Positions 19,021 to 39,143 of a stretch of DNA of 64,000 nt are shown piece after piece. The notes beneath the pieces are model-generated. The model made no database searches and had not been told where the DNA came from. It was given only the letters and a program-made list of their open reading frames with translations. This DNA is from Ignavibacterium sp. (lineage in GTDB: Bacteria; Bacteroidota; Ignavibacteria; Ignavibacteriales; Ignavibacteriaceae), in contig JAGXRK010000061.1 of the NCBI GenBank assembly GCA_018335755.1, positions 6,646 through 70,645 on the forward strand. The letters run 5' to 3'. The translations under genes were made by a program, and so were the position numbers. Position 1 is the stretch's first letter, and each line of letters begins with the position of its first letter.

Positions 19021-19045
19021 ACTTTCACAATCACCATTGTCATAT
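19021..19045. repeat. attL core: 25-bp perfect direct repeat of the PP2C gene 3' end
   Basis: actttcacaatcaccattgtcatat is identical to 36592-36616. Confidence 0.85.
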
Positions 19046-19112
19046 TATTATCCTTTATTCCCCATAAACAATTGCATTATAAAAGTTTATAATGATTTTT
19101 AAAGTGCTGAAG

Positions 19113-19130
19113 TAACAGATACGCAACAAA
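19113..19130 (+). repeat. Candidate integrase arm-type site (left end)
   Basis: aacagatacgcaacaaaa matches 36481-36497. The core cgcaacaaa also occurs inverted at 36423-36431 and 36441-36449. Confidence 0.5.
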
Positions 19131-19154
19131 ATAAAAATATGTGTTATAATTAAT

Positions 19155-20558
19155 TTATTCTAATAAATATTTCACCATCCGAACTTTCTGCAGACCATCA
19201 TCCCAAAACTTTCTTGGTACAATTTTAAATCTTGTCGGGAAATTATTAATAAAAACTATAAATAGAGAACCGAACCTTATAGGTATCAAACTTATAATTT
19301 CAAATTTATTATACATCCTTGCTTTATTTCTATCCTCTAACAAAGTGAATACTCCAGCTTTTTCACTGAAAAAAATTTTTTCAAATTGATAGATACAGCT
19401 GGGACATTTGTCCTTATCTAATTGGTTAACTGCTTCTGAGTTGTTTAATCCCATTAAATCAAGTTTTAACCATTTCATAATATTTCCTAAATTTTCATAA
19501 TTTCTTCTAGTTTCAATCAGTCTATTTTCTATTCCCAACCACCATTCCTCAAATTGTTGAAAGGTCCCAGAATCCAATAAACCAGTTTTTTCTACCATAT
19601 AGTTCTTAATGTCATTACTCCTTGTTTGAAAGGAACAATGGTATTTAGTTTGATTACTTTCATTAGATATAAATAAAACGGCCTCAGAGTTTAATTCCAA
19701 ACACATAAATTTTAAAAAGTCCTCATCAATAGATCTATTATTTTTCTTCAGCATATCAGATAGTCTTTTGACGAATTCATATATTTTCCCATACCGATTA
19801 TGCCATTCTGCTTTAAATATTGCAACTGACATTATAAAAATCACATATACAATCAATAGTTGTTTAAATAATTGCCAATTTAATTTGTTGCCAGGATCAT
19901 CGAGATAAAATATAAAGTCAGCACCAAGTGCATTAATTAATGGTATAATATCAACATTTGGGGACAAATCGTGAAGTTTAATGAAAAGAGAAGTGAGAGT
20001 AACAAAACAGGTACTATATAGAAAAGTGACAATTGATTCCCAAGAAGAGTAATGTCGAGCAGTTGTCATAAGCGGTATTAAGAACATAAACCAGGTCGGA
20101 TTATTTAAGCCACCAAATATAGCAAATGCTACCGATGCTAATATCAAATCAATAATTATACGTATTGTTCTAAAATCGTGGCGGTGATACTCAGGTAGAT
20201 CATAAGTACTGGAAAGAATATATATATATAATAAATAGACTAAGGCAAATTCAATTCTATAAACTTTTGAGAAGAATGTAATTGCAAAAGAGAAGGCAAT
20301 AACAACTCTAAAAAATGCTGCGGTCGTTGGGATATGATTGAATGGATTAAGACGGAAAATGCTTTCGCTTTCCTTGCTGATACGAACAAAATTTATAAAT
20401 AGAATTGAAATAAGAATTGATAGGTATATAATTGCCTGAAGATAATTTGCGAGGTTTAAAAAGTCTAAGACTCTCCAGCCAAATACAGTTGTGACTGAGG
20501 CAATTAACGTAATTAAAACCCATCTATTTGTTATAATTTCTTTCAAATTGAACCTCAT
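19155..20558 (-). CDS. Hypothetical polytopic membrane protein with a ~220-aa cytoplasmic C-terminal domain
   Basis: About 8 hydrophobic segments in the N-terminal 250 aa. No recognised domain. 4-nt overlap with the upstream HAD gene. Confidence 0.55.
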   Translation of the reverse strand: MRFNLKEIITNRWVLITLIASVTTVFGWRVLDFLNLANYLQAIIYLSILISILFINFVRISKESESIFRLNPFNHIPTTAAFFRVVIAFSFAITFFSKVYRIEFALVYLLYIYILSSTYDLPEYHRHDFRTIRIIIDLILASVAFAIFGGLNNPTWFMFLIPLMTTARHYSSWESIVTFLYSTCFVTLTSLFIKLHDLSPNVDIIPLINALGADFIFYLDDPGNKLNWQLFKQLLIVYVIFIMSVAIFKAEWHNRYGKIYEFVKRLSDMLKKNNRSIDEDFLKFMCLELNSEAVLFISNESNQTKYHCSFQTRSNDIKNYMVEKTGLLDSGTFQQFEEWWLGIENRLIETRRNYENLGNIMKWLKLDLMGLNNSEAVNQLDKDKCPSCIYQFEKIFFSEKAGVFTLLEDRNKARMYNKFEIISLIPIRFGSLFIVFINNFPTRFKIVPRKFWDDGLQKVRMVKYLLE

Positions 20559-21124
20559 TCGAATATTGATGAAATGAGTTTATATAAAGTATATTCAATG
20601 AATCTTGGTATTTGAACCATCCAAAATGGGTCACTACTCGGATTAATTGGCTTTATTAAAGCTGTCTTTATTCCAAAATTATTTGCACCTAATATATCCG
20701 TAAACACTCGATCACCGACCATAATAACTTTATTTGGACTGAGCTTTAAATATTTTATGGCAAGTTTAAATGGCAAGGGATCAGGTTTTTTTCTTCTAGA
20801 ATATATTACTTCAATACCTGTCTCTTTAGATAAATCAGTCAATCTGCTCAATTTAGATTCTGTTTTAGGAAAGTTCGATAAGAAACAACATTTATAGCGA
20901 GTGGAAATGTCGATCAAATATTTTTTGTATTCAGTACTAAGTTTTGATGACCCATAAGGCATTACAGTTTGATCAACATCTAGTATAATACCCTCGATTG
21001 AAAAATCAATTTTTTGCTCAAGCGTTAAAAGATTTGAAAGTGTTATTGTAGGAATATATGATTTAAGATTAAATAAGTATTTAATATTCAGAAAAAAATC
21101 TAAATTAAATAGATCAATGCTCAT
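20555..21124 (-). CDS. YqeG-like HAD-IIIA family phosphatase
   Basis: GIILDVDQTV (DxD), FLSN, RRKKPDP and MVGDRVFTDILGANNFGIKTALIKPI. Confidence 0.75.
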   Translation of the reverse strand: MSIDLFNLDFFLNIKYLFNLKSYIPTITLSNLLTLEQKIDFSIEGIILDVDQTVMPYGSSKLSTEYKKYLIDISTRYKCCFLSNFPKTESKLSRLTDLSKETGIEVIYSRRKKPDPLPFKLAIKYLKLSPNKVIMVGDRVFTDILGANNFGIKTALIKPINPSSDPFWMVQIPRFIEYTLYKLISSIFE

Positions 21125-21372
21125 TAAAATTCCTTAGAAATGTGATTTAAATATAATGATTTAGTCATAATCTTAATATTGCAGTTAATTAATAATATAG
21201 TACCGAGACTTACACGACATAAAATCATTTGAAGAATGGCAAGTAATTAATATACCCCTCAATAGGTAACCTGAGAGCCTAATTAATGAGATTAAAACAC
21301 TTTTATGTTAAAGTTGATATAATATACGGACTTTCCGAGTTATGGGACTATTTGTTAAGTGACCGTGCCGAG

Positions 21373-21462
21373 TTTACATAAGTCAACATTATCGGACACA
21401 AGACAGAAAGACAATATTCGTAAAGATGATTAGCCGTGCTCGGATAATGTTCCTTATGTAAA
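21373..21462. other. Long imperfect hairpin (10 + 9 bp stem) in the non-coding region
   Basis: tttacataag-tc-aacattatc (21373-21393) pairs with gataatgtt-c-cttatgtaaa (21443-21462). Confidence 0.6.
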
Positions 21463-21533
21463 TCTGGCTGACAATGTAAGGTTTAACCTCCCCCAAAATG
21501 CCAAGTGGCTTGACTTACTGTCTTCTTTAGTTT

Positions 21534-21994
21534 GGGAGTGAGCTGAACGATAGTGGAACGAAAGTGAAGCGAACGAGCAAAGTAAAGACCTGCCAATGAA
21601 AAGTGATTACTACCAATGTCAAAATAGTTGCGACCGTAATGTAGGTTGGATCATATCCAGACGGAATGAGGGCGCAATTATTTTGGACAGCAAGATGTTT
21701 TAGTTTGCGAATGAAGTCATCTGTTAACAATGGCGTAATGAGCAAATTAAAACAAACCAATGTTACGTGATTATTGACAAGCCAAAAAATATCTGCGACT
21801 GAATGAGGATTCCGTTCGAGCGGAACCCGGAATGAAGGAGCAGTTATTTTTTGTTAGAAAGATTATGCTAAGTTATACTATCGCTAGCGAGTGAGGTCTG
21901 CGAAGCAGGGCGAACGAGTGGTCTTCCCATTCATATTTTATAACAGTGCCTTGAAACCATAAGCGAGCGAGATTCTCGATGTAATCGAGTGAGC
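21534..21994. repeat. Cluster of at least 9 degenerate GA(A/G)(C/T)GAG-type motif copies with local hairpins, relatively GC-rich and non-coding
   Basis: Examples: gagtgagctgaacgatagtggaacgaaagtgaagcgaacgagc, gaatgagggcgc, gcgaatgaag, gcgtaatgagc, gaatgagg-attccg...cggaat-gaaggagc, gctagcgagtgaggtctgcgaagcagggcgaacgagtgg, aagcgagcgagattctcgatgtaatcgagtgagc. Stops occur in all frames. Confidence 0.6.
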
Positions 21995-22036
21995 AGATAA
22001 AAAAATAATATAAATGTTTTTCTTAAGGGAATTTGA

Positions 22037-22045
22037 GGGGGGGGG
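22037..22045. repeat. G9 homopolymer
   Basis: gagggggggggtacc, a conspicuous G-run in an AT-rich genome, about 100 nt downstream of the DUF3883 gene stop. Confidence 0.6.
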
Positions 22046-22143: not shown

Positions 22144-23676
22144 CTATATCGCTGTACCTTTAAACACTGCTACATACGAATCAGGATACATATCTAGAAC
22201 CTTAAATAAGTTACCATTAATACGATACAGATTACCTGTATTATTTTTCTTGTCAAAATTAAATACACGATACAACCAATATGATTTATTTTTGAGCTTA
22301 CTAAATTCTAACTCAGTTGGAGAAATATTAAACTGTGTATCCTTATCTTTTGATTTTGTTGTTTTAATTTCAATAAATATTTCGTTTCCAAATTCATCAT
22401 AAGATTTAACATCGTAACCCGTTCCGTCTCCTTTTTCTCTAGAAATATGCTCAATCTTCATTCCTGGTTTAAGTAAGTCCTTAAGCCTATTTTTCTCAAA
22501 CTCAATCACGAGTAATTCTCCAGCTAGTCCAAGTTTTTTTGATTCTCTTTGTCGCTTTATATGATCCGTTTTATAGCCTTTAAAAGTATGAATAATAGGC
22601 AAAAGTATTTTGGGATCTGGCGGATCAACTTCTTCGAGAGAATTTTTTGGTTGTTTTATTTTTCCCTTACCCCAAACATATTTTATTGCATCCTCATATA
22701 ACTTATCGTATTTAGATATGAAATTGTTTGTATTATTAATTAAAGTTGCCCAATTAAGTTTTTTAATTTCATCCAAATTAATTTCAATCCACTCAGAACC
22801 ACTACCAGCTATAAAGTTATCGAATTTACTAACCTGTTCTTTTGTTAATTTAATACCTCCTGACGGGCGACTTCTTTGGCAGTCTAATTTGTAAATTAAA
22901 GCCGTTCTTGAATAATCAATACCAACAGTAAAATATATAAGTCTATCTTTATCCTTTTGTTTAAATGCTTTCCCCCAAGTATAGGCGGAATAAACACCCA
23001 TTATTTGCCACATAGTATTAGTTTCTTTAACATAGCCGGGTACAGAAATAGACTCTAACCAATAATTAGTCTTATCATATAACTTCTCTCTTATCTCTTG
23101 GCCAATTTTAACATCTTCAGGATTATTTTTTCTATAAGGTTTCCCTGCATACTTTGAATATCTGACAATATCAGTAGTTAAGAAGAATTCAGGAATCTCA
23201 CTAAATGTTTTTTTAACTTGCTCAAGAGTTTCAGGCAAGATGAAATAATGTATATGTGCTTTGGGTTTATATGGTGTGCCATTAATATTATGAAGTTTAT
23301 AAAATGAATCGAGTACTGAATCTAAGAAACTACTTGATTCAAGTCTTTTCCCATAAATTTTCCGAAAATTTTGATCTGTTAAATGACCACTTCTATCTAT
23401 AGCATAATGTTTATCGTGAAGTTGAAAAGTATTATTCTTGTAACCGACAAACTTACTTGGAGCAAATTCAATATTTCCATTAATTATTTCAAGAATGAAG
23501 GTTTTACCACTTTTTAATTTATGCTTATAATATTCTGCCAAACGATTTTTTCTATTATTACGATAGGAAATCAACGTTTTAAAATTCTTTAAGACCTGAG
23601 GTTGATTTACTACATAATTTTCGTCCATCTTCACACCATTTTTATTTTTTAATTTATATAATTTTTGTTTGCTCAT
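22144..23676 (-). CDS. DUF3883 (PD-(D/E)xK-like) C-terminal domain protein with an uncharacterised ~370-aa N-terminal region
   Basis: C-terminus LAGELLVIEFEKNRL...GYDVKSY...IFIEIKTTKS...YWLYRVFNF matches the DUF3883 pattern. ATGA overlap with the upstream gene. Confidence 0.65.
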   Translation of the reverse strand: MSKQKLYKLKNKNGVKMDENYVVNQPQVLKNFKTLISYRNNRKNRLAEYYKHKLKSGKTFILEIINGNIEFAPSKFVGYKNNTFQLHDKHYAIDRSGHLTDQNFRKIYGKRLESSSFLDSVLDSFYKLHNINGTPYKPKAHIHYFILPETLEQVKKTFSEIPEFFLTTDIVRYSKYAGKPYRKNNPEDVKIGQEIREKLYDKTNYWLESISVPGYVKETNTMWQIMGVYSAYTWGKAFKQKDKDRLIYFTVGIDYSRTALIYKLDCQRSRPSGGIKLTKEQVSKFDNFIAGSGSEWIEINLDEIKKLNWATLINNTNNFISKYDKLYEDAIKYVWGKGKIKQPKNSLEEVDPPDPKILLPIIHTFKGYKTDHIKRQRESKKLGLAGELLVIEFEKNRLKDLLKPGMKIEHISREKGDGTGYDVKSYDEFGNEIFIEIKTTKSKDKDTQFNISPTELEFSKLKNKSYWLYRVFNFDKKNNTGNLYRINGNLFKVLDMYPDSYVAVFKGTAI

Positions 23677-24611
23677 AATGTTAATCCCAATGTTGCTATA
23701 ATTCTATTCTTAAGAATTTCCATATCTGCTTTAATTGTATCAACACTCCAAATAACAGTGGTTAAATGATTAGTATCAAAGTGTGTTTTGTTCTCTCTGA
23801 ATATAGTTCTCTCACATAAATAAACGACAGGTATTTTACATCCTTCAGCAAAACCCGCTTCCCAATATGCACCACTATTACCGTGGGTTAGGTCTACTAA
23901 AAGTAAATGAGAATTACGGATCTCTTCTCTTAATTGATTATCCATAATTCCGGCTTTCAGTCTTTCATCTAACGTGACCAAATCAATTCCCATAGAATTC
24001 AAGGTCGGTTTAAAGTATTTTTTATATATTGAATCAAGTAAATGATCATTGTATTGCATAGCCATAAATGCAATTCTATTTTTATTCGGTTCTTCATTTA
24101 AAGACTCAACAAATTCCCACCCATCTGGTGTTAAATGTCCTTGAAAATCATCTCCAGAATCAAGATAAGCTTTAATAATACCTTTCTTATCTAAATCGGT
24201 AGCTATATAATAAACGCCATTCCTATCTTTTGCACCAATTATTGAGGCAATTACATTCATATTCTGGATTACATCTTCACCAGGAGAATTGGTTTTATCT
24301 GCAATCCAAGAAACAAAGATGTTACTTTGCTCTTTTACAGACGGGAGATTAATATTTTGTAATATTGATTCTATATTTCGAGTATCAATCTTTGGCCCTC
24401 TATCACCTTGTTGATGATGACGAATCCAATAACTTAATCTAGAATTCCAATTTTTATAATCCTGTAAAGGAGTTACCGTAAAAATCAGCTGAGTAATAAC
24501 AAATTTTAAGCAACGAGGACAACGTGTAACAATTTCTTCACCGTGGTCATCAAATGTGATTTTGGCCAGCATACCACAGACTGGACATTTTGTAGGATCA
24601 ATCTCTTTCAT
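23673..24611 (-). CDS. Zn-ribbon protein with a C-terminal nucleoside 2-deoxyribosyltransferase-like (TIR-related Rossmannoid) domain
   Basis: N-terminal CPVCG...CPRC. C-terminal IAFMAMQY...LLLVDLTHGNSGAYWEAGFAEGCKIPVVYL resembles the NDT-family core with its conserved Glu. Confidence 0.55.
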   Translation of the reverse strand: MKEIDPTKCPVCGMLAKITFDDHGEEIVTRCPRCLKFVITQLIFTVTPLQDYKNWNSRLSYWIRHHQQGDRGPKIDTRNIESILQNINLPSVKEQSNIFVSWIADKTNSPGEDVIQNMNVIASIIGAKDRNGVYYIATDLDKKGIIKAYLDSGDDFQGHLTPDGWEFVESLNEEPNKNRIAFMAMQYNDHLLDSIYKKYFKPTLNSMGIDLVTLDERLKAGIMDNQLREEIRNSHLLLVDLTHGNSGAYWEAGFAEGCKIPVVYLCERTIFRENKTHFDTNHLTTVIWSVDTIKADMEILKNRIIATLGLTL

Positions 24612-24910
24612 TTCTTCAACCTTCTTTCAATCTTCTCATAATCCCCAAGATATGCTCTCATAAGGCACTTCCAGAGTTTGCCGTGATTTGGGTAATGGAA
24701 GTGTAATAGTTCGTGGACAATAACATATCTGCCCAGCTTTTTATCCATTTCTATCAATTCGTCATTGAAGTTTAAGTTGCCATCGGTTGAGCAGGATGCC
24801 CATTTACGGGTCATAGGACGCATAGAGATGCGTTTTAAAGCAATATCTAGCTTCACTGCATACTTTATCACTTCTTTTTTGAATTCGTATTTATCTTTCC
24901 AATTACTCAT
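24608..24910 (-). CDS. DUF45/YgjP-like zinc metallopeptidase (short form)
   Basis: HELLHFHYPNH (HExxH) motif. 100 aa. Overlaps the hsdR stop by 8 nt. Confidence 0.7.
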   Translation of the reverse strand: MSNWKDKYEFKKEVIKYAVKLDIALKRISMRPMTRKWASCSTDGNLNFNDELIEMDKKLGRYVIVHELLHFHYPNHGKLWKCLMRAYLGDYEKIERRLKK

Positions 24911-27824
24911 TGGCTTTTAGTATAATGTTGAACAGATCATCAATAATTTGTTTAGCTTTTTCTATGTCATCCATTCCTGATAAAAGAGTTAAATACATTT
25001 CCTGCCTGAGTTCTCTTGTCTCTGCTTCACTTGCTTGCCAATGGGGATATTTCTTAAAGCTCTCCGTAAAACTGTTAGCAGTGTTATCACTGTTACTCAA
25101 TCCATACTCTTTAAGCTTAGTTGAAAAGAAAAATGTTAAATCATCAAATCCTTTTGATTTCTTTTCGTCCTCCTGGCTTAATGCAGCTTTGATTAATGCT
25201 TCGAGTTCTTCCAATGCTGACTGAGTTGTGATTATTCTATCTTCATAATTTTCCTGGATGGCTTGTGCTTTTTCCTTAATAGAAATAAGCACAAGATCAC
25301 CGCTATGTTCTTCTGCATATTTACCAATGGTTTTTACGAGGTTTATGACTTTTACATTATCCGGTTTCTGTCCTGCTTTAATCAGCTCAATGGTTTTTTC
25401 ATTTAGCTCATAGGCATCTGTTGTCATTTCAAGATTTTCTATATCAACATTCTCTTTTACCAAATCAATCGTCTTTCTCTGAAATTCTTTGTCAACATAA
25501 ATGTGCTTTGCATAGGCATTGCGGACAATGTAATAGATCTGAGTTAGAAGTTTATAATTATCAATGTACGGTCTTAAAAATGCATCAGGTGAAATGATTT
25601 CATACAGCATTTCAATTTCTTTATAGAACTTAAAGAATTCTTTGCGTTTGGATTTAGATTTGAAATGCTCAATCAGCTTATCAATTTCTTTATCATTGTA
25701 AGGTGGTTTTATCAATCCTAAATATTTTGGAGCTATGCTTTCAAGATTTTTCTTAAATAAATCTTTAAGAAGTGCTAAATCTTTGATAACACTTTTTATA
25801 TCATCAGAATCAAAGGCTAATGCTTTTTCCAGCTTATCAAATATTCCAATAAAATCTATCACCAATCCGAATGGTTTCTTCTTTCCTTCTTCATCTTCAT
25901 AAGGACGGTTGACTCTTGCTATTGCCTGAAGCAATGTGTGATCTCTCATTGGCTTATCTAAATACATTGCATAGAGTATCGGTGCATCGTAACCGGTTAA
26001 AAGCTTTTCTGTAACGATTAGAATTTTTGGTAGGATTTCATTCTTTGCAAAATTCTTGCGGATGGTTTTTTCTTCTTCTTTATCTATATGAAATTCTTTT
26101 AGCTGTTCTGTATCGTTATGTGCACCTGTATAAACAACCTGAGAGTATTCGGGGGGCAGGTATTTATCCAAAGCTTTTTTATAAAGCGCACAAGCTTCTC
26201 TATCTACTCCGACTAAAAATGCTTTATAGCCAAGATTCTCGACATAGGTTTGATAGTGCTCTGCAACAAACTTTGCAATCTTCGCTATTCTACTTTTGCC
26301 TTTTAGGAAATGTCTTGTCTGGACAGCCTTTTCCAGAATCTTATTTAATTCATCAATATCACTTACACCTTCAGCTTCTGCCAGCTTTAGAAATTCCTTT
26401 TCAAGAATATCTTCAGGTACTCTTAAATCATTTGGGGCAAGTGAATAATAAAGAGGTAATGTCGTACCATCAGTAATAGAATCTGAAATCGAGTATTTAT
26501 CCAGATAACCTTTAGGATCATCTATTCCGAAAGTTTTAAATGTTCCCCTGCCGTAAGCTGTTTTATCTATTGGCGTACCTGTAAATCCGATTAGAGTTGC
26601 ATTCGGAACAGCAGCCATTAAATAATTTCCTAAATCACCGGAGGTTGTCCTGTGTGCTTCATCCACTAAAACATAAATATTTTTTCGCTTGTTGATGTTG
26701 GGAGGCATATCATTAAACTTATGAATCATACTAACTATCAAACCACGATAATCATCTTTTAACAAATCTCTCATTACTGCAATGCTGTTTGCGTGAGCTA
26801 CATTCTGAATTCCCAATGACGTAAGATTGCGAATCATCTGGTCTTCAAGTTCGTTTCTGTCAATCAATAAAATGATAGTTGGTTTATCTGCTTCCGGTTT
26901 TTTGAATAATAGCTCTGATGATTTGATGATTGTGAATGTTTTACCTGATCCCTGAGTATGCCAGACCAATCCCCTGCTCTTTTGAGTATCTAAAGCTCTT
27001 GTTACAACCTTTTCCACCGCTTCTACCTGATGCTGACGCAAAATATATTTATTTAACTCCTCGTCCTTCTCAACAAAGACAATATATTTTTTCAGATAAG
27101 CTAAGATTCTGTCTATAGCAAAAAATGTTTTTACCTTTGATTCAAGATTTCCAATCTCTTCGCTTTTCCAGTTGAAAAGATTTTTGCGATTTGTATTCCA
27201 GGTTACTCCATATAAAAAACCAAGTGCTTCTGTTACAGTGTAGATTTGCTGAGGGATAAGCATTTCGGGGGTTTCTCTATGGTATCGTCTTATCTGATCT
27301 ATTCCGATTGCAAAGGCTTCATCTTTGGTTGCGTTTTTACACTCGATAACAATTACAGGAATGCCATTAATAAAGAAGACAATGTCTGCCCTGTTGCCAT
27401 ACCTGCCGTTGTTAAAATAATATTCTTCCGAAACGTGATAAGTGTTATTGGTGTGATCTTCAAAATCTATAAGCTTGAGGTTATACTCACGGTTATCTTC
27501 AGAGCAAAAGAATGTTTTTTCTCCCCTGAGATATTGAAGGAAATCTTTGTTACCCTGAATATCTGTACGAAGGCTTTTAAGTTTTGGAAGAAGGTTGTTG
27601 TCTTTTTCAGTGTATTTGGGATTAAACTTAAATACTTTTTCAAGTAAAATATCTTTTAAGAATGGATGTGAGTTTTTAGCTCTTTCTGATGGTAATGTTG
27701 CTGAAGTATCGAAGTGTCTTAGTTTCTCTGTTTCTGACTGAGTTAATATCTCCCAACCAATTTTAGATGAATATTCTAAAATTCTTTTTTGAACAGTTGT
27801 ATGTTCTGTGAATGAATCGCTCAT
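24903..27824 (-). CDS. hsdR: Type I restriction enzyme R subunit
   Basis: N-terminal nuclease ADIVFFINGIPVIVIECK. Helicase motifs HTQGSGKTFT, VLVDEAHR and GFTGTPI. QAIARVNR. 973 aa. Confidence 0.9.
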   Translation of the reverse strand: MSDSFTEHTTVQKRILEYSSKIGWEILTQSETEKLRHFDTSATLPSERAKNSHPFLKDILLEKVFKFNPKYTEKDNNLLPKLKSLRTDIQGNKDFLQYLRGEKTFFCSEDNREYNLKLIDFEDHTNNTYHVSEEYYFNNGRYGNRADIVFFINGIPVIVIECKNATKDEAFAIGIDQIRRYHRETPEMLIPQQIYTVTEALGFLYGVTWNTNRKNLFNWKSEEIGNLESKVKTFFAIDRILAYLKKYIVFVEKDEELNKYILRQHQVEAVEKVVTRALDTQKSRGLVWHTQGSGKTFTIIKSSELLFKKPEADKPTIILLIDRNELEDQMIRNLTSLGIQNVAHANSIAVMRDLLKDDYRGLIVSMIHKFNDMPPNINKRKNIYVLVDEAHRTTSGDLGNYLMAAVPNATLIGFTGTPIDKTAYGRGTFKTFGIDDPKGYLDKYSISDSITDGTTLPLYYSLAPNDLRVPEDILEKEFLKLAEAEGVSDIDELNKILEKAVQTRHFLKGKSRIAKIAKFVAEHYQTYVENLGYKAFLVGVDREACALYKKALDKYLPPEYSQVVYTGAHNDTEQLKEFHIDKEEEKTIRKNFAKNEILPKILIVTEKLLTGYDAPILYAMYLDKPMRDHTLLQAIARVNRPYEDEEGKKKPFGLVIDFIGIFDKLEKALAFDSDDIKSVIKDLALLKDLFKKNLESIAPKYLGLIKPPYNDKEIDKLIEHFKSKSKRKEFFKFYKEIEMLYEIISPDAFLRPYIDNYKLLTQIYYIVRNAYAKHIYVDKEFQRKTIDLVKENVDIENLEMTTDAYELNEKTIELIKAGQKPDNVKVINLVKTIGKYAEEHSGDLVLISIKEKAQAIQENYEDRIITTQSALEELEALIKAALSQEDEKKSKGFDDLTFFFSTKLKEYGLSNSDNTANSFTESFKKYPHWQASEAETRELRQEMYLTLLSGMDDIEKAKQIIDDLFNIILKANE

Positions 27825-30855: not shown

Positions 30856-31515
30856 TTAGCAACAATTGGTGCTTTTATTTGAAAGCGCATTTATTCTATT
30901 AGGATGCTTCTTGGTTAAATCTTTTCCATATAATTTTACTTTTGCACAACTAAACAAAAAATCATACAATTTCTTGCCAATATTTTCATCAAGCTTATGT
31001 GGTTTTGATCCAACCCCTGCTTTGAAAGCCTTAATTAAAAAATCCGTTTGTAATCCATTTTTATTTAGAAATGGTAAAATATCAAGAAGATTATCTTTTG
31101 CATCTTGAGGCTGGAAACTCGTATCTGGCTCTGCTTTTAACGTATATCTTTTTCTTTTTTTAAATGGATGGTTATGCACCCATTTGTAGTGATGTTGGAA
31201 AGTTTGTTCATTATCTACAATATAATCATTACGACTTATTTTATTATTGTCCTTCCAAAATATTTTTTCAGCTATATGAAAAACACAATCACAGTTCAAT
31301 TCTGTAAAGTCATTAAGAGATGGTTTCCCTGAAACCCAAAAATTAACCTGATTCTTATAGTTTGAAAGTTGTGTTATGTGACAATAAGTATGCAGAAATT
31401 TTTCATTCCAGATATAAGGATCCTCATTTCCTCCAAAGCTATCGTGATAAATCGTAAGCTTTCCATTATTATATCTACATCTTTCCGGATGATATATTAA
31501 ATAAAAGGGACCCAA
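30856..31515 (-). CDS. Hypothetical His/Cys/Trp-rich protein, predicted RT partner
   Basis: 219 codons with no stop and no internal Met. TTG start 1 nt after the hsdM stop. No family recognised. Motifs HDSFGG, CDCVFH and HHYKWVHNHPF. Confidence 0.55.
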   Translation of the reverse strand: MGPFYLIYHPERCRYNNGKLTIYHDSFGGNEDPYIWNEKFLHTYCHITQLSNYKNQVNFWVSGKPSLNDFTELNCDCVFHIAEKIFWKDNNKISRNDYIVDNEQTFQHHYKWVHNHPFKKRKRYTLKAEPDTSFQPQDAKDNLLDILPFLNKNGLQTDFLIKAFKAGVGSKPHKLDENIGKKLYDFLFSCAKVKLYGKDLTKKHPNRINALSNKSTNCC

Positions 31516-31516: not shown

Positions 31517-33076
31517 TTAATACCCCAACTTTTTAAAAATATCTTTCAGCTCTTTATCGATAGCCTTTTGTTCCTGTTCAAGTTCTTTCAGGTCTTCGAG
31601 TATTTCGCCGATAGGTCTGTAAGTTTCCTCTTCTGCTGTGTGTATGTAGCGAGTTGGAGATAAGTTATAATCATTTTTTACTATTTCATCTTTATCAATA
31701 ACTTTGCTAAACTTTTCAATCTCTTTCCAGCTTAAATAAGCATCAACAATTTTATTCTGGTTTTCATCTGGTATAAAATTCTTTGGCTGTCCTTTTTGAA
31801 ATTCTTTAGAGGCGTTAATGAGTAAAATTTTATTCTTTTTACTTTTATCTTTCTTCCTGTTGAGAAACAGAATTATTCCCGGTGCAGGAGTATTATAAAA
31901 GAGATTTTCAGGTAAGTATAACACACCTTCAATTATATCCTGTTCTACAAACCATTTCCTAATTTCTTTTTCTCTGTTTGTACTTTGATTTCCCGAACCT
32001 CTTGAGACTGCACCTGTATCTAAAACAATTCCTGCTCTTCCTTTTTCATTTAAAGAAGCAAGAATATGTTGAGCCCAACCCCAATCTGCTGTACCGTTTG
32101 GTGGAAAGCCAGCACTAAATCTTTCAAGCTCATCATTTTCATAAGTCTTTTGATTAAAGTTACTCTGATTCCACATTGGATTAGCAGTTACAAGATCAAA
32201 TTTTCTTAGTCTGCTTCCATCTCTGAATTTTGGAGAGTTCATTGTATCACCAATTTCAATGGTACCTTCCATATCGTGAATAACCATATTCATATTAGCC
32301 ATTGCCCAGGTGCTTGAGATATATTCCTGTCCGTTTAATTGAAGCGGTGCATATTTTTCTTTAGATCGTAAATGCATTTTGTCCTGAAGGACCAACTGGC
32401 ATTTAATAAGCAATCCTGCAGAGCCACAGCAAGGATCATAGATTTCCTGCCCGGGTTCAGGATCGAGAATACGAGCTATAATAATTCCAACTTCTTTAGG
32501 TGTGTAGAATTCACCTGCACTTTGTCCTCCACCTTCAGCAAACTTTCTAATCAGATATTCATAGCTTCTGCCAATGATATCCGGTTCAACGTCTTTAAGG
32601 CCTAATCTCTTCTTGCTTATTTCTTCAATCAGGTTGCTGAGCTTGTCATCATCAATATCTCTTTGTCCGTGAGTGGTTGCGTTAAAATCAACTCTGTCAA
32701 TGATACCCTGTAAGCGTGGGTTTTCTCTGGCTATGTCTCTCATTCTGTTAGTAAGCTCTTCACCGATCTTTGTTGATAGCTTACGAATCACAGACCAGGT
32801 AGGATCATCAATGTTTTCAGGTCTTAAAGGAATGTAAAAGCGGATTAATTTTCTATCTTTTTCAATTAGCTTTAGAGCTTTTTGTTTATCACTAATCTTG
32901 TCCGTGATTCTTTGGACTTCGTCATCAAATACATCGCATAGTCTTTTTACAAAAATGAGGGGTAGTATAAAGTCTTTGTACTTCGGTGCGTCTTGCGCTC
33001 CTCTGATGGCGCAAGCCGCATCCCATATCCAGGATTCAAGGGATTTGTGATTGTTGTTATTTGACATATATGTCAT
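31517..33076 (-). CDS. hsdM: Type I restriction enzyme M subunit (N6-adenine DNA methyltransferase)
   Basis: HsdM N-terminal domain, motif I DPCCGSAGLL, motif IV ANPMWN. Confidence 0.9.
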   Translation of the reverse strand: MTYMSNNNNHKSLESWIWDAACAIRGAQDAPKYKDFILPLIFVKRLCDVFDDEVQRITDKISDKQKALKLIEKDRKLIRFYIPLRPENIDDPTWSVIRKLSTKIGEELTNRMRDIARENPRLQGIIDRVDFNATTHGQRDIDDDKLSNLIEEISKKRLGLKDVEPDIIGRSYEYLIRKFAEGGGQSAGEFYTPKEVGIIIARILDPEPGQEIYDPCCGSAGLLIKCQLVLQDKMHLRSKEKYAPLQLNGQEYISSTWAMANMNMVIHDMEGTIEIGDTMNSPKFRDGSRLRKFDLVTANPMWNQSNFNQKTYENDELERFSAGFPPNGTADWGWAQHILASLNEKGRAGIVLDTGAVSRGSGNQSTNREKEIRKWFVEQDIIEGVLYLPENLFYNTPAPGIILFLNRKKDKSKKNKILLINASKEFQKGQPKNFIPDENQNKIVDAYLSWKEIEKFSKVIDKDEIVKNDYNLSPTRYIHTAEEETYRPIGEILEDLKELEQEQKAIDKELKDIFKKLGY

Positions 33077-33299: not shown

Positions 33300-34244
33300 C
33301 TAGTTGGGTGATGGAAGTTTATATAGTCCGGTTTTGCTGCCCTTTATTATTTCCCCTGCAAGCAGCATCTTTCTGAGTAGCTGGCTTATCGATTCCCTTG
33401 ATTTTTGAAGTCTCTCAGCCATTTGGCCAACCCTGATTTCAAGGTCATATTGTCCTCCGAATAGCTCGATGATTTCCTGACGTTCCACTGTTGATGCTGA
33501 AATAATATTCTTATCCATTACTATCCAGCGGTGAGTTTCCTCATCCTGTGTCAGCAAATAATTTTCCTCCTTAACATCCCGTCCTGTAACGTGAAGGATA
33601 TAACCATTGGAATGCTTTTTGAGTATTAAAAGTGTATCCGGGGCAGCAGTGATTCCGGAAGTACCTACAATCTCATCAAAGACAGAATCGGCTTCACTTT
33701 TCCTTGTATGATGAATTAACAATATACAGAGTTGATTTTGAAGTGCAATATTCTGAAGCTCTGCCATAAAATCATATTCATCCTGGAATGATAAGCCAAA
33801 TTTTCTTTGATCTTTTGAGATTGCATTCCCTAGGGTATCGATGATAATTAAATTAAGATCCTCGTTCTGATCGACAGCTTGTCTGATCATTTTGATTCCT
33901 TCTAGATGAAATCGTCTAAATTCTGATTGATCAAGAAAAAACAGGTCACTTGAAGCTTCACCATCTTTAAGCATAGTATTTATTCTGTCTTTCAATCTTC
34001 TAAAATTATCTTCAAGTGCGATATACAAAACTTTACTTTTCTGAGTATCAAAATAATCCATAGTTTGTGCACCTGCAGAAGAAGCGAGTGCTAATTGTGA
34101 AGATAACCAGGACTTGCCTACCTTTGGCCTGCCAGCCAGGAGGGCTAAACCCTCCGGCAGCAGATCTTTAATTATCCAATTTATAGGTGGCAACTCCATT
34201 TTCTGGATTTCATTCGCTGAAACTAGTTTTAGATTTTCTTTCAT
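33300..34244 (-). CDS. AAA_25/RepA-like RecA-fold ATPase of the mobile element
   Basis: Walker A LLAGRPKVGKSW and Walker B LIIIDTLG. This architecture is common next to integrases. Confidence 0.7.
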   Translation of the reverse strand: MKENLKLVSANEIQKMELPPINWIIKDLLPEGLALLAGRPKVGKSWLSSQLALASSAGAQTMDYFDTQKSKVLYIALEDNFRRLKDRINTMLKDGEASSDLFFLDQSEFRRFHLEGIKMIRQAVDQNEDLNLIIIDTLGNAISKDQRKFGLSFQDEYDFMAELQNIALQNQLCILLIHHTRKSEADSVFDEIVGTSGITAAPDTLLILKKHSNGYILHVTGRDVKEENYLLTQDEETHRWIVMDKNIISASTVERQEIIELFGGQYDLEIRVGQMAERLQKSRESISQLLRKMLLAGEIIKGSKTGLYKLPSPN

Positions 34245-34257
34245 TTCTGTAGTTCTC

Positions 34258-34536
34258 CTAATTTATAGTTGTATTTAGTTTTGATTGTAATTCTTCGATA
34301 GTATAAATTCTATCCTTTTCCACCCATTCTATGAGGTCCGATTTTTTGAAGAGAAGCTTCTTTGTGCTTTTATAGAATGGGATTTCCCGTTTGAAGACCA
34401 TCTGGTAAATAGTAGTCTTTTTCAGCTTGAGAAAGCTGCTGGCTTCATTGATATCCATAAACTCTGTTTCTTTTGTTTGTATAGAGTTTAGAATGGACTC
34501 AATTTTGTTTAATTGGTGTTGGATTTGCTTTTCCAT
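34258..34536 (-). CDS. Excisionase-family / MerR-like helix-turn-helix DNA-binding protein
   Basis: INEASSFLKLKKTTIYQMVFKREIPFYKSTKKLLFKKSDLIEWV. Confidence 0.65.
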   Translation of the reverse strand: MEKQIQHQLNKIESILNSIQTKETEFMDINEASSFLKLKKTTIYQMVFKREIPFYKSTKKLLFKKSDLIEWVEKDRIYTIEELQSKLNTTIN

Positions 34537-34627: not shown

Positions 34628-35383
34628 TTATTCCTGATCAAATCTTAATTTCTTCAGTTTATCACTGATTTGATGAGTTTCATTTTTATTATTTATGTTG
34701 TTGTTTAAATGTTTTAACTTTTTCGGATCAATTTCAGAATCATTCCAAGTAAAATGTTTAGCTAATATTTGATATTTGTTTTTTTTATAAACAAAAAAAC
34801 CCGATTCGAAGAGTTTGTTGAACAAAAATACAAAATCTTCTTTTTTCTCCTGCCAAACCAATTTATCATTCTGCCCCTGATTATCTTCTTCGTCATCATC
34901 CCCTAAAACTTCATTAATAATTAATACTTTTCTTATTAACTTATCTAACCAAATAGAGTAATCCTTAAATTCAAGCACTAATGATAAAACATCGATATCA
35001 CGCTTACCAGTTTTTTTATCTTCTAATATCATTCTGACCACTTTATCTTCTATTTTATTCAGGTCAAGATTATTGATATAAATTTTGTATTCTTGTTTTG
35101 ATAATTCATTATTCTTATTCAATTTGAATTTAAAGGAAGATTTATCTTCCGAGTCGAATATTGTTTCAGCATCAAGAAATTTTGAAAATGAATGGGATTG
35201 TAGGGCTTGTGTAATTTTAATTATTCTGTCTCTTTTTTCGATGAGATAGTTTAAAGCTGCTTTATCATCCAGGTTTTTGAGTTTTTCTTCAATCGCACCA
35301 ATAGTAAAACCATAATGCCCTATGAAATAAGTATCTGGTGTTTCTAAACGCTCCAGACCGCTTGAATATTTCATTAAATCCAT
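34628..35383 (-). CDS. Hypothetical island protein
   Basis: 251-aa ORF between the integrase and the HTH gene. Lys/Asp-rich. No family recognised. Confidence 0.45.
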   Translation of the reverse strand: MDLMKYSSGLERLETPDTYFIGHYGFTIGAIEEKLKNLDDKAALNYLIEKRDRIIKITQALQSHSFSKFLDAETIFDSEDKSSFKFKLNKNNELSKQEYKIYINNLDLNKIEDKVVRMILEDKKTGKRDIDVLSLVLEFKDYSIWLDKLIRKVLIINEVLGDDDEEDNQGQNDKLVWQEKKEDFVFLFNKLFESGFFVYKKNKYQILAKHFTWNDSEIDPKKLKHLNNNINNKNETHQISDKLKKLRFDQE

Positions 35384-35385
35384 AT

Positions 35386-36423
35386 TTAATCTCCTAATAT
35401 TGGCAATCGATTTATTGCTTCTACTTTTTTCTCATCCACTATTTTTGCATAAACTTGAGTAGTTGAAATACTTTTGTGTCCAAGTAATTTACTAACAGTA
35501 TAAAGATCAGTACCCATAGTCAGCGATAGTGTTGCAAATGTGTGTCGTGCTGTGTGAAATGATACTCTTTTATTTATTTCAGCTTTCTTAACCCATCTTT
35601 TTATGTTAGACCAAGTTACTTCTTTTTGCGGTATATGAAAAACAAATTCATCTTTTTTACTTGAAGATTTTTCATCCAGTATCTTTTTTGCTGTGTGTGC
35701 TAATGGCAGATATTCAACACCGCCTGTCTTCTTCTGTCTGAATTCCAGTTTATCATTTTTAATATTAGACCATTTTAAATTTATTATATCAGAATATCTA
35801 AGTCCAGTGAAACAGGAGAAAATAAAAGCATCCTTAACCTCTTTATTTCCTAAAGGTGTTTCGTTAAGCTTTTTAACCTCTTCAATCGTTAGATACTCCC
35901 GGTTAGTCTCTGGCTTCTTTATGTTATCAACTAAGTTGCAGGGATTATTTTGTATTATCATCTCTTTTACTGCACGATTCAGAGCGTACTTAATATTAGT
36001 GTAATAATGCCAGGCAGTTATTTGAGATACTTCATTAAGTAATAATTTCTTAAATCCGGTTAACCATTCGGGTGTGATCTTCTGGAATTCTACTTTACCA
36101 CCGGTATAATCCTCTAACTTCTTCAGCGTACATTGCCAACTGCTGCGATCTGGCGGTCTCTCATTAACAAGTTTTTTAAAGTAGGTAACGAAATCATCTT
36201 TTCGTTTTGTTTCACTTACGAATCCGTATGAATCGTGATTCAATTCTAATTGCCTTTTGGCTCTAATGTTCTCTGCTAGCTGAAGTGTGGCTTTATTTGC
36301 GATTGGATTATCTTCCAAAAAAAGATTAAGATGTTCAAATTTTCGTTGCCCCTGGTGGTATATGTCCAGGAATAAGCTATACCGATTGTTACTGCGTTTT
36401 CTCTTCCTAATTTTTACTGACAT
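35386..36423 (-). CDS. Tyrosine-type site-specific integrase with an N-terminal Arm DNA-binding domain
   Basis: Catalytic region GLRYSD...HTARHTFATL...LLGHKSISTTQVYA. Basic N-terminus RKRKRSNNRYSLFLDIYHQGQRKF. Confidence 0.9.
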   Translation of the reverse strand: MSVKIRKRKRSNNRYSLFLDIYHQGQRKFEHLNLFLEDNPIANKATLQLAENIRAKRQLELNHDSYGFVSETKRKDDFVTYFKKLVNERPPDRSSWQCTLKKLEDYTGGKVEFQKITPEWLTGFKKLLLNEVSQITAWHYYTNIKYALNRAVKEMIIQNNPCNLVDNIKKPETNREYLTIEEVKKLNETPLGNKEVKDAFIFSCFTGLRYSDIINLKWSNIKNDKLEFRQKKTGGVEYLPLAHTAKKILDEKSSSKKDEFVFHIPQKEVTWSNIKRWVKKAEINKRVSFHTARHTFATLSLTMGTDLYTVSKLLGHKSISTTQVYAKIVDEKKVEAINRLPILGD

Positions 36424-36497
36424 TTGTTGCGCCTATAAGTTTTGTTGCGATAATTACAACTGAAAATTAATGGTTGAGTTACAAATACGCAACAAAA
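36423..36497. repeat. Three copies of the cgcaacaaa core (two inverted, one direct): candidate arm-type integrase sites
   Basis: tttgttgcg at 36423-36431 and 36441-36449. acaaatacgcaacaaaa at 36481-36497 matches 19113-19130. Confidence 0.5.
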
Positions 36498-36584
36498 ATT
36501 ATAAAAATCATTGAAAGTGGTGAAAACAGATATAAGAAAAAACTTTGTTTTTTAATTATATTCGAAGAAAGTTTGGAATGAAAA

Positions 36585-39143
36585 TTAGGAAACTTTCACA
36601 ATCACCATTGTCATATCATCGTTTACTTCCGTAGTACCGCGGAAGTTTTTAACTGACAGCCACACCTCATTCATTATCTGTGTTGATCTGTAACCGGATT
36701 TTTTAATGAGAAGTTCTTTAAGATTTTCCTCACCGAAAAGTTCATCGTGTTCATTCATCGCTTCGGTTATGCCGTCTGAGAAGAAAGCATAAATTTCACC
36801 CTGAAGCAGGTTCATTTCTTCTTCAACCAGAGTCTGCTCAAAGATGATTCCCTTTTCAAGTCCGAGTCCGATACCTCTTGACTTAAGTGACTGAACTGTT
36901 CCGTTGGTTGCTTTGAATAATGGAAGATGTCCCGCCCTGCAGAATTTAATTGTTCGTTTTTCAGTATCGAATAAAGCGAGGGTTAATGTAACGAACCAGT
37001 TCCGCTCCATTGATTCATACATTTTCTTATTCACTTCAACCAGAATGTCCTTAGGTGAAAGACTGTTATTACTTGCGAGCTGTATCATAGTCTGCACCTT
37101 GGTCATATAAAATGATGCGGGCAGACCTTTACCGGAAACATCACCGACAGCAACAAACAATTTTGTATCCGATACCTGTATAAGATCAAAATAATCTCCA
37201 CCGACCTGCATTGCAGGAATCATCTCGCCGCAAATGTCAAGTCCTTGCATATCAGGTATACATCTGGGTAAAAGACTTTGTTGTATCTGTCTTGCTAATT
37301 CAAGGTCCCTTTCCAGTTTCAGCTTTTCAGATTCAGATTCATACAGCCGTGCATTCTCAATAGATATTGCAATTTGATTGGCAGCCGCACCGAGCAGTTC
37401 GAGGTCCTTTCCGGCAAACTGACTGCCGGAGTATTTTAAACCAAAAAGAAGAAGTCCGACTACCTTTGCCTTAACATACATTGGCACTGCAGTATAAAAA
37501 CCTTCGTCTATCATCTGTCTGAAATTGTCCGGGAATATGCGTTCAAAATCATTCTGCTGAATTACAGGTATATCATTTGTTAAGTTTTTATCTCTTATAA
37601 ACTGAGTCAGGCTGGAATTACTTATCAGGCATTCTGTTTTAGTTATACCGAAACTTTTTATAAGATTCAGATGACCGGTTTTGTTATCCCGGATAAGAAT
37701 ACCAAACTTCTTTAGCTGCAATGCTTCAACAAAAGTGGATTGAGTTATATCAAGCACGTTATCGAGTCCGACTACAGTAGGAATGTCATTGCTGAACTTC
37801 ATCAGAATTTTCTGATGGGCAAACTGTTCAGGATAAAATCTTTTAGTAAGAAAATCCTGGAAACGGTCCTTTGTTGATTGAAAGATCAAAGCAAATACAA
37901 TAAAGAAAATACCGGCAATAATTCCCTGCTGATCAGTTCCCAGTGCAGTGCTGATGCTTTGTCCTATCACATAAATCACAAAGAAATAAATTGCAGCTAT
38001 TCCAAGTGTGGCTGTTCCGTATATTATTGTGTTCTTTAATACTTCACCTACATCAAGAAGTTGATATTTGAAAATGGCATAAGCAAAACCTAATGGAACT
38101 AAAATCATAAGAACAACCGGCATATAATATTCCGGTGAATTATAAATTGTATCAGAAATTGCAGGGGCAATTGTATTCATATAAACGCCTATCAGTAAAC
38201 CAAACACCATAGATATTAAAAATATCAGTACGGGCTTTCTTTGCGGTGTTTTTCTTACAGACCAGTATTGAAGGAACATTGAAAGTATTGCAGCCATCAT
38301 TGCAGTTGTTATAACAATTTGCATTACATTTCTGTATTGCACAAAATAAGAAACAGAAATTATCTTTGCGTTAAGGGAAAGATGACCGATTATATTACCG
38401 GATACTGACATTAATAGCGGGATAAGAATCATCACCAGCTTAACCCAGGTTTTTTCTATGAAGCTGAATGGCTTTGGGAATGTCCAGACAAAAGCCAGAA
38501 GTACTATAGGTAAAAAGCTGTTGCCTATGATAGTAAGACTGCCTATTACTACACCAAGTACCGGCAATTGTTCAAATAGCTGCTGCATCCCTCCGAACCG
38601 GGGAATTAAAGCCTGCATTGCAGTGAATACTGCCAGTACACCTAATGCATAAAAAAGTCGTTGTGAAAGTCCATCCGGTTTAGCTGATAATACTATAAAT
38701 CCGATTAAAAGATAAATTAAGGCACTTATTGATGCGGCAAGTGTGCCAAACTCAACAAGCTTTTTGATGTATACTTTAGTTTCAAAAATTTCACCATCGG
38801 GCTTCTTAACTTTGTAATGAACCAGTTCACCATAGCCAAATGAATTGAGAATATTTTGAGCTTGAAACGGATTTAGTATTTCTCTGTTATCTATTTCCAG
38901 AAGCTGATAGCCGTCCCTTATACCGGCATTCCAGGTTACACCGTTCTCTTTAACATTGGAAAAGTAAAGATCTACATTCTGTTCCATTGAGGTCATAGCT
39001 TTTTTAGGCAGCCACAGACACTCATCGTTTGAGGCAACATTAACTTCAAGCGTATAATAGATGTTCAAAATCGCAACGGCAATCAGGATGATCGTAAAAG
39101 CAATTACGATGTTAGAACGATATTTTAAGAATAGTGATGTCAA
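36585..39143 (-). CDS. Membrane-bound GAF-domain PP2C (SpoIIE/RsbU-type) serine phosphatase
   Basis: About 10 TM segments, then a GAF-like region, then GGDYFD, VGDVSGKG, FSDGITEA and DDMTMVIVKV. TTG start at 39143. Confidence 0.8.
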   Translation of the reverse strand: MTSLFLKYRSNIVIAFTIILIAVAILNIYYTLEVNVASNDECLWLPKKAMTSMEQNVDLYFSNVKENGVTWNAGIRDGYQLLEIDNREILNPFQAQNILNSFGYGELVHYKVKKPDGEIFETKVYIKKLVEFGTLAASISALIYLLIGFIVLSAKPDGLSQRLFYALGVLAVFTAMQALIPRFGGMQQLFEQLPVLGVVIGSLTIIGNSFLPIVLLAFVWTFPKPFSFIEKTWVKLVMILIPLLMSVSGNIIGHLSLNAKIISVSYFVQYRNVMQIVITTAMMAAILSMFLQYWSVRKTPQRKPVLIFLISMVFGLLIGVYMNTIAPAISDTIYNSPEYYMPVVLMILVPLGFAYAIFKYQLLDVGEVLKNTIIYGTATLGIAAIYFFVIYVIGQSISTALGTDQQGIIAGIFFIVFALIFQSTKDRFQDFLTKRFYPEQFAHQKILMKFSNDIPTVVGLDNVLDITQSTFVEALQLKKFGILIRDNKTGHLNLIKSFGITKTECLISNSSLTQFIRDKNLTNDIPVIQQNDFERIFPDNFRQMIDEGFYTAVPMYVKAKVVGLLLFGLKYSGSQFAGKDLELLGAAANQIAISIENARLYESESEKLKLERDLELARQIQQSLLPRCIPDMQGLDICGEMIPAMQVGGDYFDLIQVSDTKLFVAVGDVSGKGLPASFYMTKVQTMIQLASNNSLSPKDILVEVNKKMYESMERNWFVTLTLALFDTEKRTIKFCRAGHLPLFKATNGTVQSLKSRGIGLGLEKGIIFEQTLVEEEMNLLQGEIYAFFSDGITEAMNEHDELFGEENLKELLIKKSGYRSTQIMNEVWLSVKNFRGTTEVNDDMTMVIVKVS
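36592..36616. repeat. attR core: 25-bp perfect direct repeat inside the last codons of the PP2C gene
   Basis: Identical to 19021-19045. On the minus strand it encodes MTMVIVKV. Confidence 0.85.

Follow-up and report, generated by a model that had tools for sequence, protein, structure and literature searches.

The subject of this report is a segment of 17.6 kb (positions 19021 to 36616) in a stretch of 64,000 nucleotides (nt) from an Ignavibacterium species. "The window" means this whole stretch of 64 kb, and all coordinates refer to it unless another contig is named. The segment is inserted in the last codons of a gene for a PP2C-type phosphatase, is bounded by two copies of a 25-bp sequence and carries an integrase gene near one end. 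Very probably, it is a real genomic island that was integrated site-specifically into a chromosome of the Ignavibacteriaceae and that carries anti-phage defence genes. Its junctions and its integration module comprise the following features (aa, amino acids):

18984..19020, minus strand: displaced native 3' tail of the PP2C gene (NGWMGDVNRLT plus stop, by translation in the gene's frame), cut off from the gene by the island
19021..19045, no strand: attL core, left copy of the 25-bp repeat; exact copy, 0 expected by chance
19111..19131, no strand: candidate arm-type site of the left end (AGTAACAGATACGCAACAAAA, contains CGCAACAA), matching 36477-36497 at 19/21 positions as a direct repeat
33300..34244, minus strand: RepA/DnaB-like AAA_25 ATPase, presumed replication helicase (Pfam AAA_25, 6e-29; PHROG primase/helicase families)
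34258..34536, minus strand: HTH_17 excisionase-family protein, candidate recombination directionality factor (Pfam HTH_17, 2.8e-12)
34628..35383, minus strand: protein of 251 aa in a variable backbone slot beside the integrase; no family match
35386..36423, minus strand: tyrosine integrase with an N-terminal arm-binding domain (Pfam Arm-DNA-bind_5, Phage_int_SAM_5 and Phage_integrase, 2.9e-25)
36424..36497, no strand: three candidate arm-type sites of the right end, TTGTTGCG at 36424-31 and 36442-49 and an inverted copy within 36477-97
36592..36616, no strand: attR core, right copy of the repeat, coding for (D)MTMVIVKV of the target gene
36585..39143, minus strand: target gene, a GAF-SpoIIE (RsbU-like PP2C) phosphatase of 852 aa (Pfam SpoIIE, 3.9e-39, and GAF_3)

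The 25-mer ACTTTCACAATCACCATTGTCATAT is an exact direct repeat at 19021-19045 and 36592-36616. Even if up to three mismatches are allowed, the two strands of the window contain no third copy, and matches were seen in 0 of 100 dinucleotide-preserving shuffles. An earlier note, made from the letters of this DNA alone, had proposed that a perfect repeat bounds 17.6 kb and had named a dispersed 25-mer as one of the findings that would speak against an island. The repeat is exact, and with two copies in 64 kb it is not dispersed. Translation also reproduces the claim that the right copy forms the last codons (MTMVIVKV) of the phosphatase gene, the product of which ends with ...NDDMTMVIVKVS. The final codon and the stop of this gene (S, 36585-36590) come from the island. 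If translation in this frame is continued through the left copy, a different C-terminus results, MTMVIVKVNGWMGDVNRLT*, as had been stated.

Between the repeats, all open reading frames (ORFs) with family matches are on the minus strand, and they agree with the former description of defence and accessory cargo. The suggested comparison of composition revealed a modest difference by both measures. The GC content of the island is 0.323 versus 0.352 in the flanks, and its tetranucleotide distance to the flanks is 0.200 versus 0.145 +/- 0.022 for flank windows, i.e., about 2.5 standard deviations. This is consistent with a foreign origin from a similar host range. tRNA or tmRNA genes are absent from the 64-kb window. 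The note had stressed that the site is protein-coding and not a tRNA gene; 3' ends of protein genes are not unusual targets.

The integrase has retained its catalytic residues R209, H290-x-x-R293, H316 and Y325, as judged from alignments with XerA and other integrases and from the sequence itself. Its start codon is 168 nt away from the attR core, which fits the distance of about 170 nt given before, and the predicted Arm domain was matched. The excisionase-like helix-turn-helix protein and the RepA-like ATPase said to follow the integrase were equally recovered; the former scores 42.3 bits against the NCBIfam model TIGR01764 ("excise"), the cut-off of which is 28.8. All backbone ORFs of the island are full length.

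The ends of the island share a further motif. TTGTTGCG occurs four times in the 64-kb window versus 1.3 expected, and all four sites (19122-29, 36424-31, 36442-49 and 36488-95) lie at most 170 nt inside the att cores. By simple arithmetic, four random positions would all fall into these 340 nt with a chance of about 1e-9. A direct repeat of 21 nt, AGT(A/T)ACA(G/A)ATACGCAACAAAA, lies 66 nt inward of attL and 95 nt inward of attR. The block on the attR side, ATTTTTGTTGCG[TC]ATTTGT[TA]ACTCA, aligns in relatives at equal distance from the core; in the contig L034 the sequence diverges within the block. The positions of the motifs are those expected for arm-type sites, to which the N-terminal domain of the integrase would bind.

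Relatives were sought with the PP2C protein in a collection of genomes, one for each species, and this search led to metagenome-assembled genomes (MAGs) of Ignavibacteriaceae. The closest relative found, L001, has both flanks on a single contig of 12.2 kb and no island (PP2C 91% identical at the amino acid level, flanks about 89% at the DNA level). Its PP2C ends with VKIN*, and about 115 nt further on the homologue of window position 17376 is reached. Some 40 nt just outside attL (18949-18989) align with the sequence 3' of PP2C in L001, hence the left repeat marks the left edge of the inserted DNA. L003 and L005, with PP2C identities of 75-77%, are also empty and have secF within about 90 nt of PP2C. 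Three related genomes thus have an uninterrupted attB.

The same comparison discloses more variation at this place. Positions 14576-19020 of the window are absent in L003 and L005, and 17377-18949 is absent in L001; the stretch from PP2C to secDF is clearly a hotspot of variation. The latter piece is a second, independent insertion of 1.57 kb relative to L001. It comprises a HepT/MNT toxin-antitoxin pair and an ORF of 99 aa. On either side of it stands one copy of an imperfect direct repeat of some 36-40 nt (17339-17378 and 18949-18988); in L001 this repeat is single-copy.

The association of the integrase with this target is not restricted to the window. A search with the integrase gave 5382 homologues, for some of which the context was retrieved. 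In seven of seven independent contexts, the window included, the PP2C stop is followed after about 150-210 nt by the start of the integrase; the integrases are 58-95% identical. The PP2C gene of all seven contexts encodes a SpoIIE domain and ends with DDMT(M/I)V(I/L/V)VK plus one or two residues. The junction of the window itself is also represented by L019/L020; the other six are listed here with integrase identity and, where noted, cargo:

L021: integrase 95%; contig begins just before the core; cargo an SNF2/PLD helicase and an Eco57I/MmeI-like methyltransferase
L022-24: integrase 77%; contigs begin just before the core; cargo of L022 a type I restriction-modification (R-M) system with SLFN/AlbA_2 and other inserts
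L025: integrase 67%
L031: integrase 67%; cargo fused helicase and methylase-specificity genes
L032/33: integrase 64%; genes differ after the integrase
L034/35: integrase 58%; "Bacteroidetes bacterium" MAG with PP2C in a quite different neighbourhood; cargo of L034 a type I R-M system and a MrcB_N/NOV_C protein

The contigs L021 to L024 begin 8-50 nt before the core, as would happen if a polymorphic att site made the assembly graph fork there. Integrase, variable gene and HTH_17 recur in most islands of this lineage. In L021, L022 and L031, HTH_17 is followed by an AAA_25 gene, in L034 by one for a Phage_CRI-like protein. Among the related islands the cargo varies, yet it always consists of restriction or defence genes. 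The linkage from the integrase through repA to hsdM is shared by the window and L022, the homologous intergenic region included. Between these two, DNA identity is 78% for the R-M genes and 72% for the integrase; as both diverge alike, R-M must be a long-term cargo of the backbone.

A metagenome scan with the exact 25-mer retrieved three contigs, and the 25-mer is there found only at PP2C ends or island junctions. In one contig, L027, the PP2C gene ends with a host-type core, ACATGACAATGGTTATTGTGAAAAT. It is followed by a segment of 2.4 kb (L027 410-2849) with three small ORFs and no integrase, and then by the exact 25-mer of the window, which shows that the element takes the 25-mer along. The segment keeps a decayed version of the conserved attR-side block. 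Like L026, it looks like the decayed remnant of an island, similar to the cis-mobilisable elements (CIMEs) discussed below. The two core copies of L027 differ at positions 2, 14 and 24, from which we infer that crossover takes place within core positions 15-23 (ATTGTGAAA). After the segment there are a small addiction-module-like gene pair and an ORF of 148 aa that, by eye, resembles a transposase of the IS200 type (Y1).

Very probably, the course of events was as follows. The attP of the island imitates a SpoIIE-type PP2C gene at its 3' end, and the integrase recombined this attP with an attB consisting of the codons for DDMTMVIVKV, the last conserved motif of PP2C. At attR, the gene end was thereby rebuilt with an S-stop supplied by the island; at attL, the core was left in front of the displaced native tail. 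Together with the HTH protein, the integrase could excise the island as a circle, the replication of which may be supported by the helicase. The core of the earlier proposal, an integrative island with a protein-coding attB in a partner-switching PP2C gene, has held up: the empty site, the seven of seven junctions, the motifs at the ends and the catalytic residues all speak in its favour.

There are observations that do not fit easily, and they are collected here as points against an integrated and still mobile island. Among four to five contigs of the same strain, recognised by the exact integrase or by the 99-aa protein of the left flank, neither a circular attP junction nor an empty attB was seen. 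Genes for a relaxase, a type IV secretion system (T4SS), capsid or packaging were not recognised with Pfam, NCBIfam, PHROGs or PADLOC. An attL copy was not found within the 10-kb flanks of the integrase-carrying relatives L025 and L031-L035, which did not extend far enough to show it. Finally, L002 (contig CAZXCP010000002.1; PP2C 87%), L028 and L029 have homologous hsdM, hsdS and hsdR genes directly after PP2C, and L030 has at the same locus just Fic and a remnant of hsdR of 30 residues. Integrase module and second att copy are lacking in all four, and PP2C there ends with a native-type tail. The R-M loci or remnants lacking an integrase are:

L002: 12563-22556
L028: hsdM, hsdS and hsdR directly after PP2C
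L029: 4935-14368
L030: 10001-11209

Their inserts are Fic, DUF3800, Y1 transposase and others. In L029 and L002 a second att copy is missing even if up to seven mismatches are allowed.

The earlier note had regarded the same 17.6 kb without the repeats as incompatible with its proposal. To some extent this situation exists, since L002, L028 and L029 have homologous R-M genes devoid of integrase and repeats. One might therefore suspect that the type I R-M system is an ancestral resident of the PP2C-secDF hotspot, that only int, xis and repA are foreign and that the 17.6 kb do not constitute one element; the variability of the region would fit this idea. We consider it very unlikely. No att copy lies between repA and hsdM; the only second copy is at 19021, beyond all cargo. 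L001 lacks R-M and integrase together, and the linkage of repA to hsdM recurs in another island (L022). For these three reasons the interpretation as one island stands. Moreover, hsdR of L002 is 90% identical to that of the island at the DNA level, whereas core genes show 75-82%, which indicates transfer rather than vertical descent and suggests that the R-M system of L002 is derived from the island lineage. The native tails of the integrase-less loci, of course, are not explained by a simple deletion of the integrase module, because the island-type tail would have remained. That the 25-mer might be a chance or dispersed repeat, or the target-site duplication of a transposon, can practically be dismissed in view of the two copies in 64 kb, the empty shuffles and the confinement of its metagenomic matches to PP2C ends and island junctions. 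There is also no transposase in the segment, and usual target-site duplications are shorter than 25 bp.

If the segment is one integrated island, its present mobility still has to be judged. It may have arrived as proposed and since become fixed, with int, xis or the att arms nonfunctional or unexpressed; the perfect repeat would then merely reflect a recent insertion. The failure to see an empty site or a circular form in the same strain can be quoted for this assumption, as can the integrase-less remnants at the locus (L027, possibly L002, L028, L029 and L030), if these are taken as in-place decay. We consider such an immobile state rather unlikely. The two 25-bp cores are identical, catalytic residues and backbone ORFs are intact, the motifs are kept at both ends, and an integrase of 95% identity with the same core and a different cargo in another sample points to recent activity of the lineage. 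For just these reasons (intact genes, identical cores, motifs at both ends and the close integrase with other cargo) it is plausible that the island is still competent for excision, and we lean slightly to this side.

What kind of element it is can be said in part. As an island of a site-specific tyrosine recombinase it is well documented by the catalytic residues, the repeats with a rebuilt gene end, the empty site and the common target of the lineage. An integrative and conjugative element (ICE) it is not, as no T4SS, coupling-protein or relaxase domain is present among the 16 ORFs scanned. For an integrative mobilisable element (IME), no relaxase or Mob family was detected by Pfam, NCBIfam, PHROGs or PADLOC; the candidates that remain are the 251-aa protein, a protein of 467 aa at the left end and the hairpin at 21366-21510. 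Nor does it resemble a prophage: among eight backbone or unannotated ORFs, the PHROGs matches with an assigned function are only integrase, HTH and helicase, and structural Pfam domains are lacking elsewhere. A phage satellite of the P4-like or phage-inducible chromosomal island (PICI)-like type, or a prophage remnant, would depend for its transfer on a hijacked helper phage instead of conjugation. The PHROGs matches just mentioned are in line with it, and the combination of integrase, AlpA/excisionase-like HTH, primase/helicase and defence cargo resembles satellites of defence hotspots. Integrase, regulator and primase/helicase are indeed present here, and several ORFs have no assigned function. 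We nevertheless hold a satellite or prophage remnant to be improbable, since no library revealed a capsid, terminase, portal, tail or known capsid-redirecting gene, and the nearest integrases in a collection of viral contigs reach just 32-41% identity.

Three paralogous SpoIIE/PP2C genes, the last of which is the target gene, form a cluster (36585-46331) with STAS, HATPase_c_2 and sigma-70-family genes. The cluster is a partner-switching module and is syntenic among relatives in the Ignavibacteriaceae. Only the last paralogue serves as attB. The other two PP2C genes of the window were considered as additional targets and discarded; they have no insertion and match the core at just 16-17 of 25 positions. 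The codons covered by the repeat are those of the last conserved motif of PP2C (DDMTMVIVKV), which in PPM phosphatases includes a metal-binding aspartate. This is probably why the site is a stable and conserved landing place.

Integration was also supposed to change the tail of the phosphatase. The change as such is real, VKVS* with the island present versus VKVNGWMGDVNRLT* in the native state, but it probably has no consequence. The ends of orthologous PP2C proteins are VKIN*, VKVNG*, VKVS*, VKMM*, VKVK*, VKVE* or VKVN*, and one orthologue has an unconserved extension of 27 residues. Native tails thus span 1 to 27 residues without conservation; the ends brought along by islands are S* or Q*. 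The model of the SpoIIE domain reaches residue 851 of 852. The swap thus concerns a tail without constraint and is probably neutral for the phosphatase.

With little confidence, a more far-reaching idea may be mentioned. A clade of Arm-domain integrases in Ignavibacteriota and at least one Bacteroidota genome might have specialised on the DDMTMVxVK codons of SpoIIE/RsbU-type PP2C genes, much as others use tRNA genes, and might shuttle interchangeable defence cargo. Read-through from the stress operon could couple excision or transfer to the stress response of the host, and alternative tails could modulate signalling. The integrase gene always follows the phosphatase gene directly and in equal orientation, and no terminator is recognisable between PP2C and integrase; the counts of the promoter and terminator scan were near those of shuffles and are not used as evidence.

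The remainder of the island is cargo:

19155..20558, minus strand: cargo protein of 467 aa; no match in Pfam, PADLOC or PHROGs
20555..21124, minus strand: HAD-IIIA/YqeG-like phosphatase (Pfam PGP_phosphatase, HAD_2)
21366..21510, no strand: conserved non-coding block with a long imperfect hairpin (DNA fold z-score -3.6)
22144..23676, minus strand: protein of 510 aa with C-terminal NOV_C/DUF3883, candidate defence gene (Pfam NOV_C, 4.8e-20)
23673..24611, minus strand: protein of 312 aa, possible partner of the NOV_C protein (weak PADLOC TIR-effector match, 2e-4)
24608..24910, minus strand: short YgjP-like metallopeptidase-domain protein 3' of hsdR (Pfam YgjP-like, 1.1e-24, C-terminal half of the model)
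24903..27824, minus strand: type I restriction subunit HsdR (Pfam HSDR_N, SWI2_SNF2, ResIII, T1R_D3-like)
27960..29210, minus strand: type I specificity subunit HsdS (Pfam Methylase_S, two stretches)
29212..30840, minus strand: UG13b-class reverse transcriptase (RT) between hsdM and hsdS (PADLOC RT_UG13b, 2.8e-119; Pfam RVT_1)
30856..31515, minus strand: protein of 219 aa, uncharacterised family; no Pfam, PADLOC or PDB sequence match
31517..33076, minus strand: type I methyltransferase HsdM (Pfam N6_Mtase, 3e-95, and HsdM_N)

From attR inwards, the order of the genes is integrase, 251-aa protein, HTH_17, AAA_25, hsdM, 219-aa protein, RT, hsdS, hsdR, YgjP-like protein, 312-aa protein, NOV_C protein, an ORF-poor stretch of 1 kb, HAD phosphatase and 467-aa protein. 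HsdR, HsdM and HsdS, the three subunits of a type I R-M system, are all matched by Pfam and are encoded together. The RT covers 417 of 430 positions of the RT_UG13b model and has its YADD motif at residues 259-262; a defence role of the UG13b class has been predicted from genomic context only (PMC9226505).

The 219-aa protein has 123 representative homologues and yields a structure model of high score (AlphaFold2, AF2; pLDDT 92.6). Its best Foldseek matches, with E values of 0.04-0.3, are all PUA-like (McrB-N/YTH, ASCH, EVE), and the resemblance of the model to these readers of modified bases is weak. It was also considered as an obligate partner of the RT, and this was rejected, as a homologue of 47% identity stands without RT beside a RelB/YafQ pair in L038. 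The pairing of hsdR with ygjP is also seen in L029. The 312-aa protein matches two PHROGs of unassigned function, one of them PHROG 16139 (9e-17). The NOV_C protein is matched by the PADLOC models PDC-S36 (2e-36) and PD-T4-1 (1.7e-17). The HAD-IIIA protein scores 2.5e-23 against the NCBIfam YqeG family, which is below the cut-off of that model.

For the 251-aa protein of the backbone, three homologues were found, and its identity to the genes in the same slot of L021, L022, L031 and L034 is about 15-26%. The slot between integrase and excisionase keeps its position, and the sequences in it are near-unrelated even where the integrases are 95% identical. The AF2 model of the protein has a pLDDT of 68.7, and Foldseek offered nothing better than E = 1.4.

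The stretch from 21125 to 22143, about 1 kb without a long ORF, has a positive GC skew unlike the rest of the island. The block of 145 nt in it (21366-21510) is 80% identical to an intergenic block of the islands L032 and L033. Rfam yielded no match in the whole window at gathering thresholds, and none in 21100-22160 at E <= 1. The block could be an origin of transfer (oriT), a replication origin or a non-coding RNA of this island family.

Much of this has precedents. Phage 21, a lambdoid phage, and the element e14 integrate in the 3' part of the E. coli icd gene and bring along a substitute end; the hybrid gene is functional and has a slightly different C-terminus. These are a prophage and a defective prophage, respectively, whereas the island has no recognisable virion genes and an integrase of a different family (Arm-DNA-bind_5). 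P4-like and PICI satellites share with the island the integrase, the AlpA/excisionase-like HTH, the primase/helicase and a variable slot for defence genes; in contrast to them, the island has no identified capsid-hijacking or packaging genes and no known helper phage. In the prr locus of E. coli, the accessory defence gene prrC is embedded in a type I R-M operon. The hsdM, hsdS and hsdR genes of the island are likewise interrupted by unrelated defence-type genes, and in related loci the same slots are occupied by Fic, SLFN/AlbA_2, DUF3800 or Y1 transposase genes.

Tyrosine-recombinase elements that integrate in the 3' ends of protein genes and provide a replacement gene end are well described (PMC5704250). 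The streptococcal IMEs in ribosomal-protein genes (PMC5704250) are like the island in having an integrase at the end of the element, direct repeats, a site-specific target and accessory cargo. The island differs from them by its target, a SpoIIE/RsbU-type PP2C gene in Ignavibacteriota/Bacteroidota, and in that a relaxase or oriT was not recognised. CIMEs are decayed ICEs or IMEs that have kept attL and attR and have lost the genes for integration and transfer (PMC5704250). It is the remnant in L027 that is comparable to them, not the island of the window, which keeps the full integration module. Our literature search revealed no report of a PP2C/SpoIIE gene as attB or of islands in Ignavibacteria. 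Target gene and host phylum thus appear to be new; the principle is known.

Integration at a 3' end with reconstitution of the gene end being textbook knowledge, the general understanding of integrative elements is not altered by this example. What it offers is a defence island with precisely defined ends, from a phylum that is mostly uncultured and has been little studied. An integrase lineage with a predictable protein-coding target could help to find more islands and cargo in metagenomes of Ignavibacteriota and Bacteroidota, and the enzyme could serve as a tool for site-specific integration in these organisms. For the UG13b RT, a defence candidate, and its weakly PUA-like neighbour, natural contexts inside a type I R-M operon are now at hand.

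One observation concerns a distant part of the window. The most negative GC skew of the window (-0.27 to -0.36) is found at 59001-62000, over the ORFs 59294-60943 and 60959-61951.

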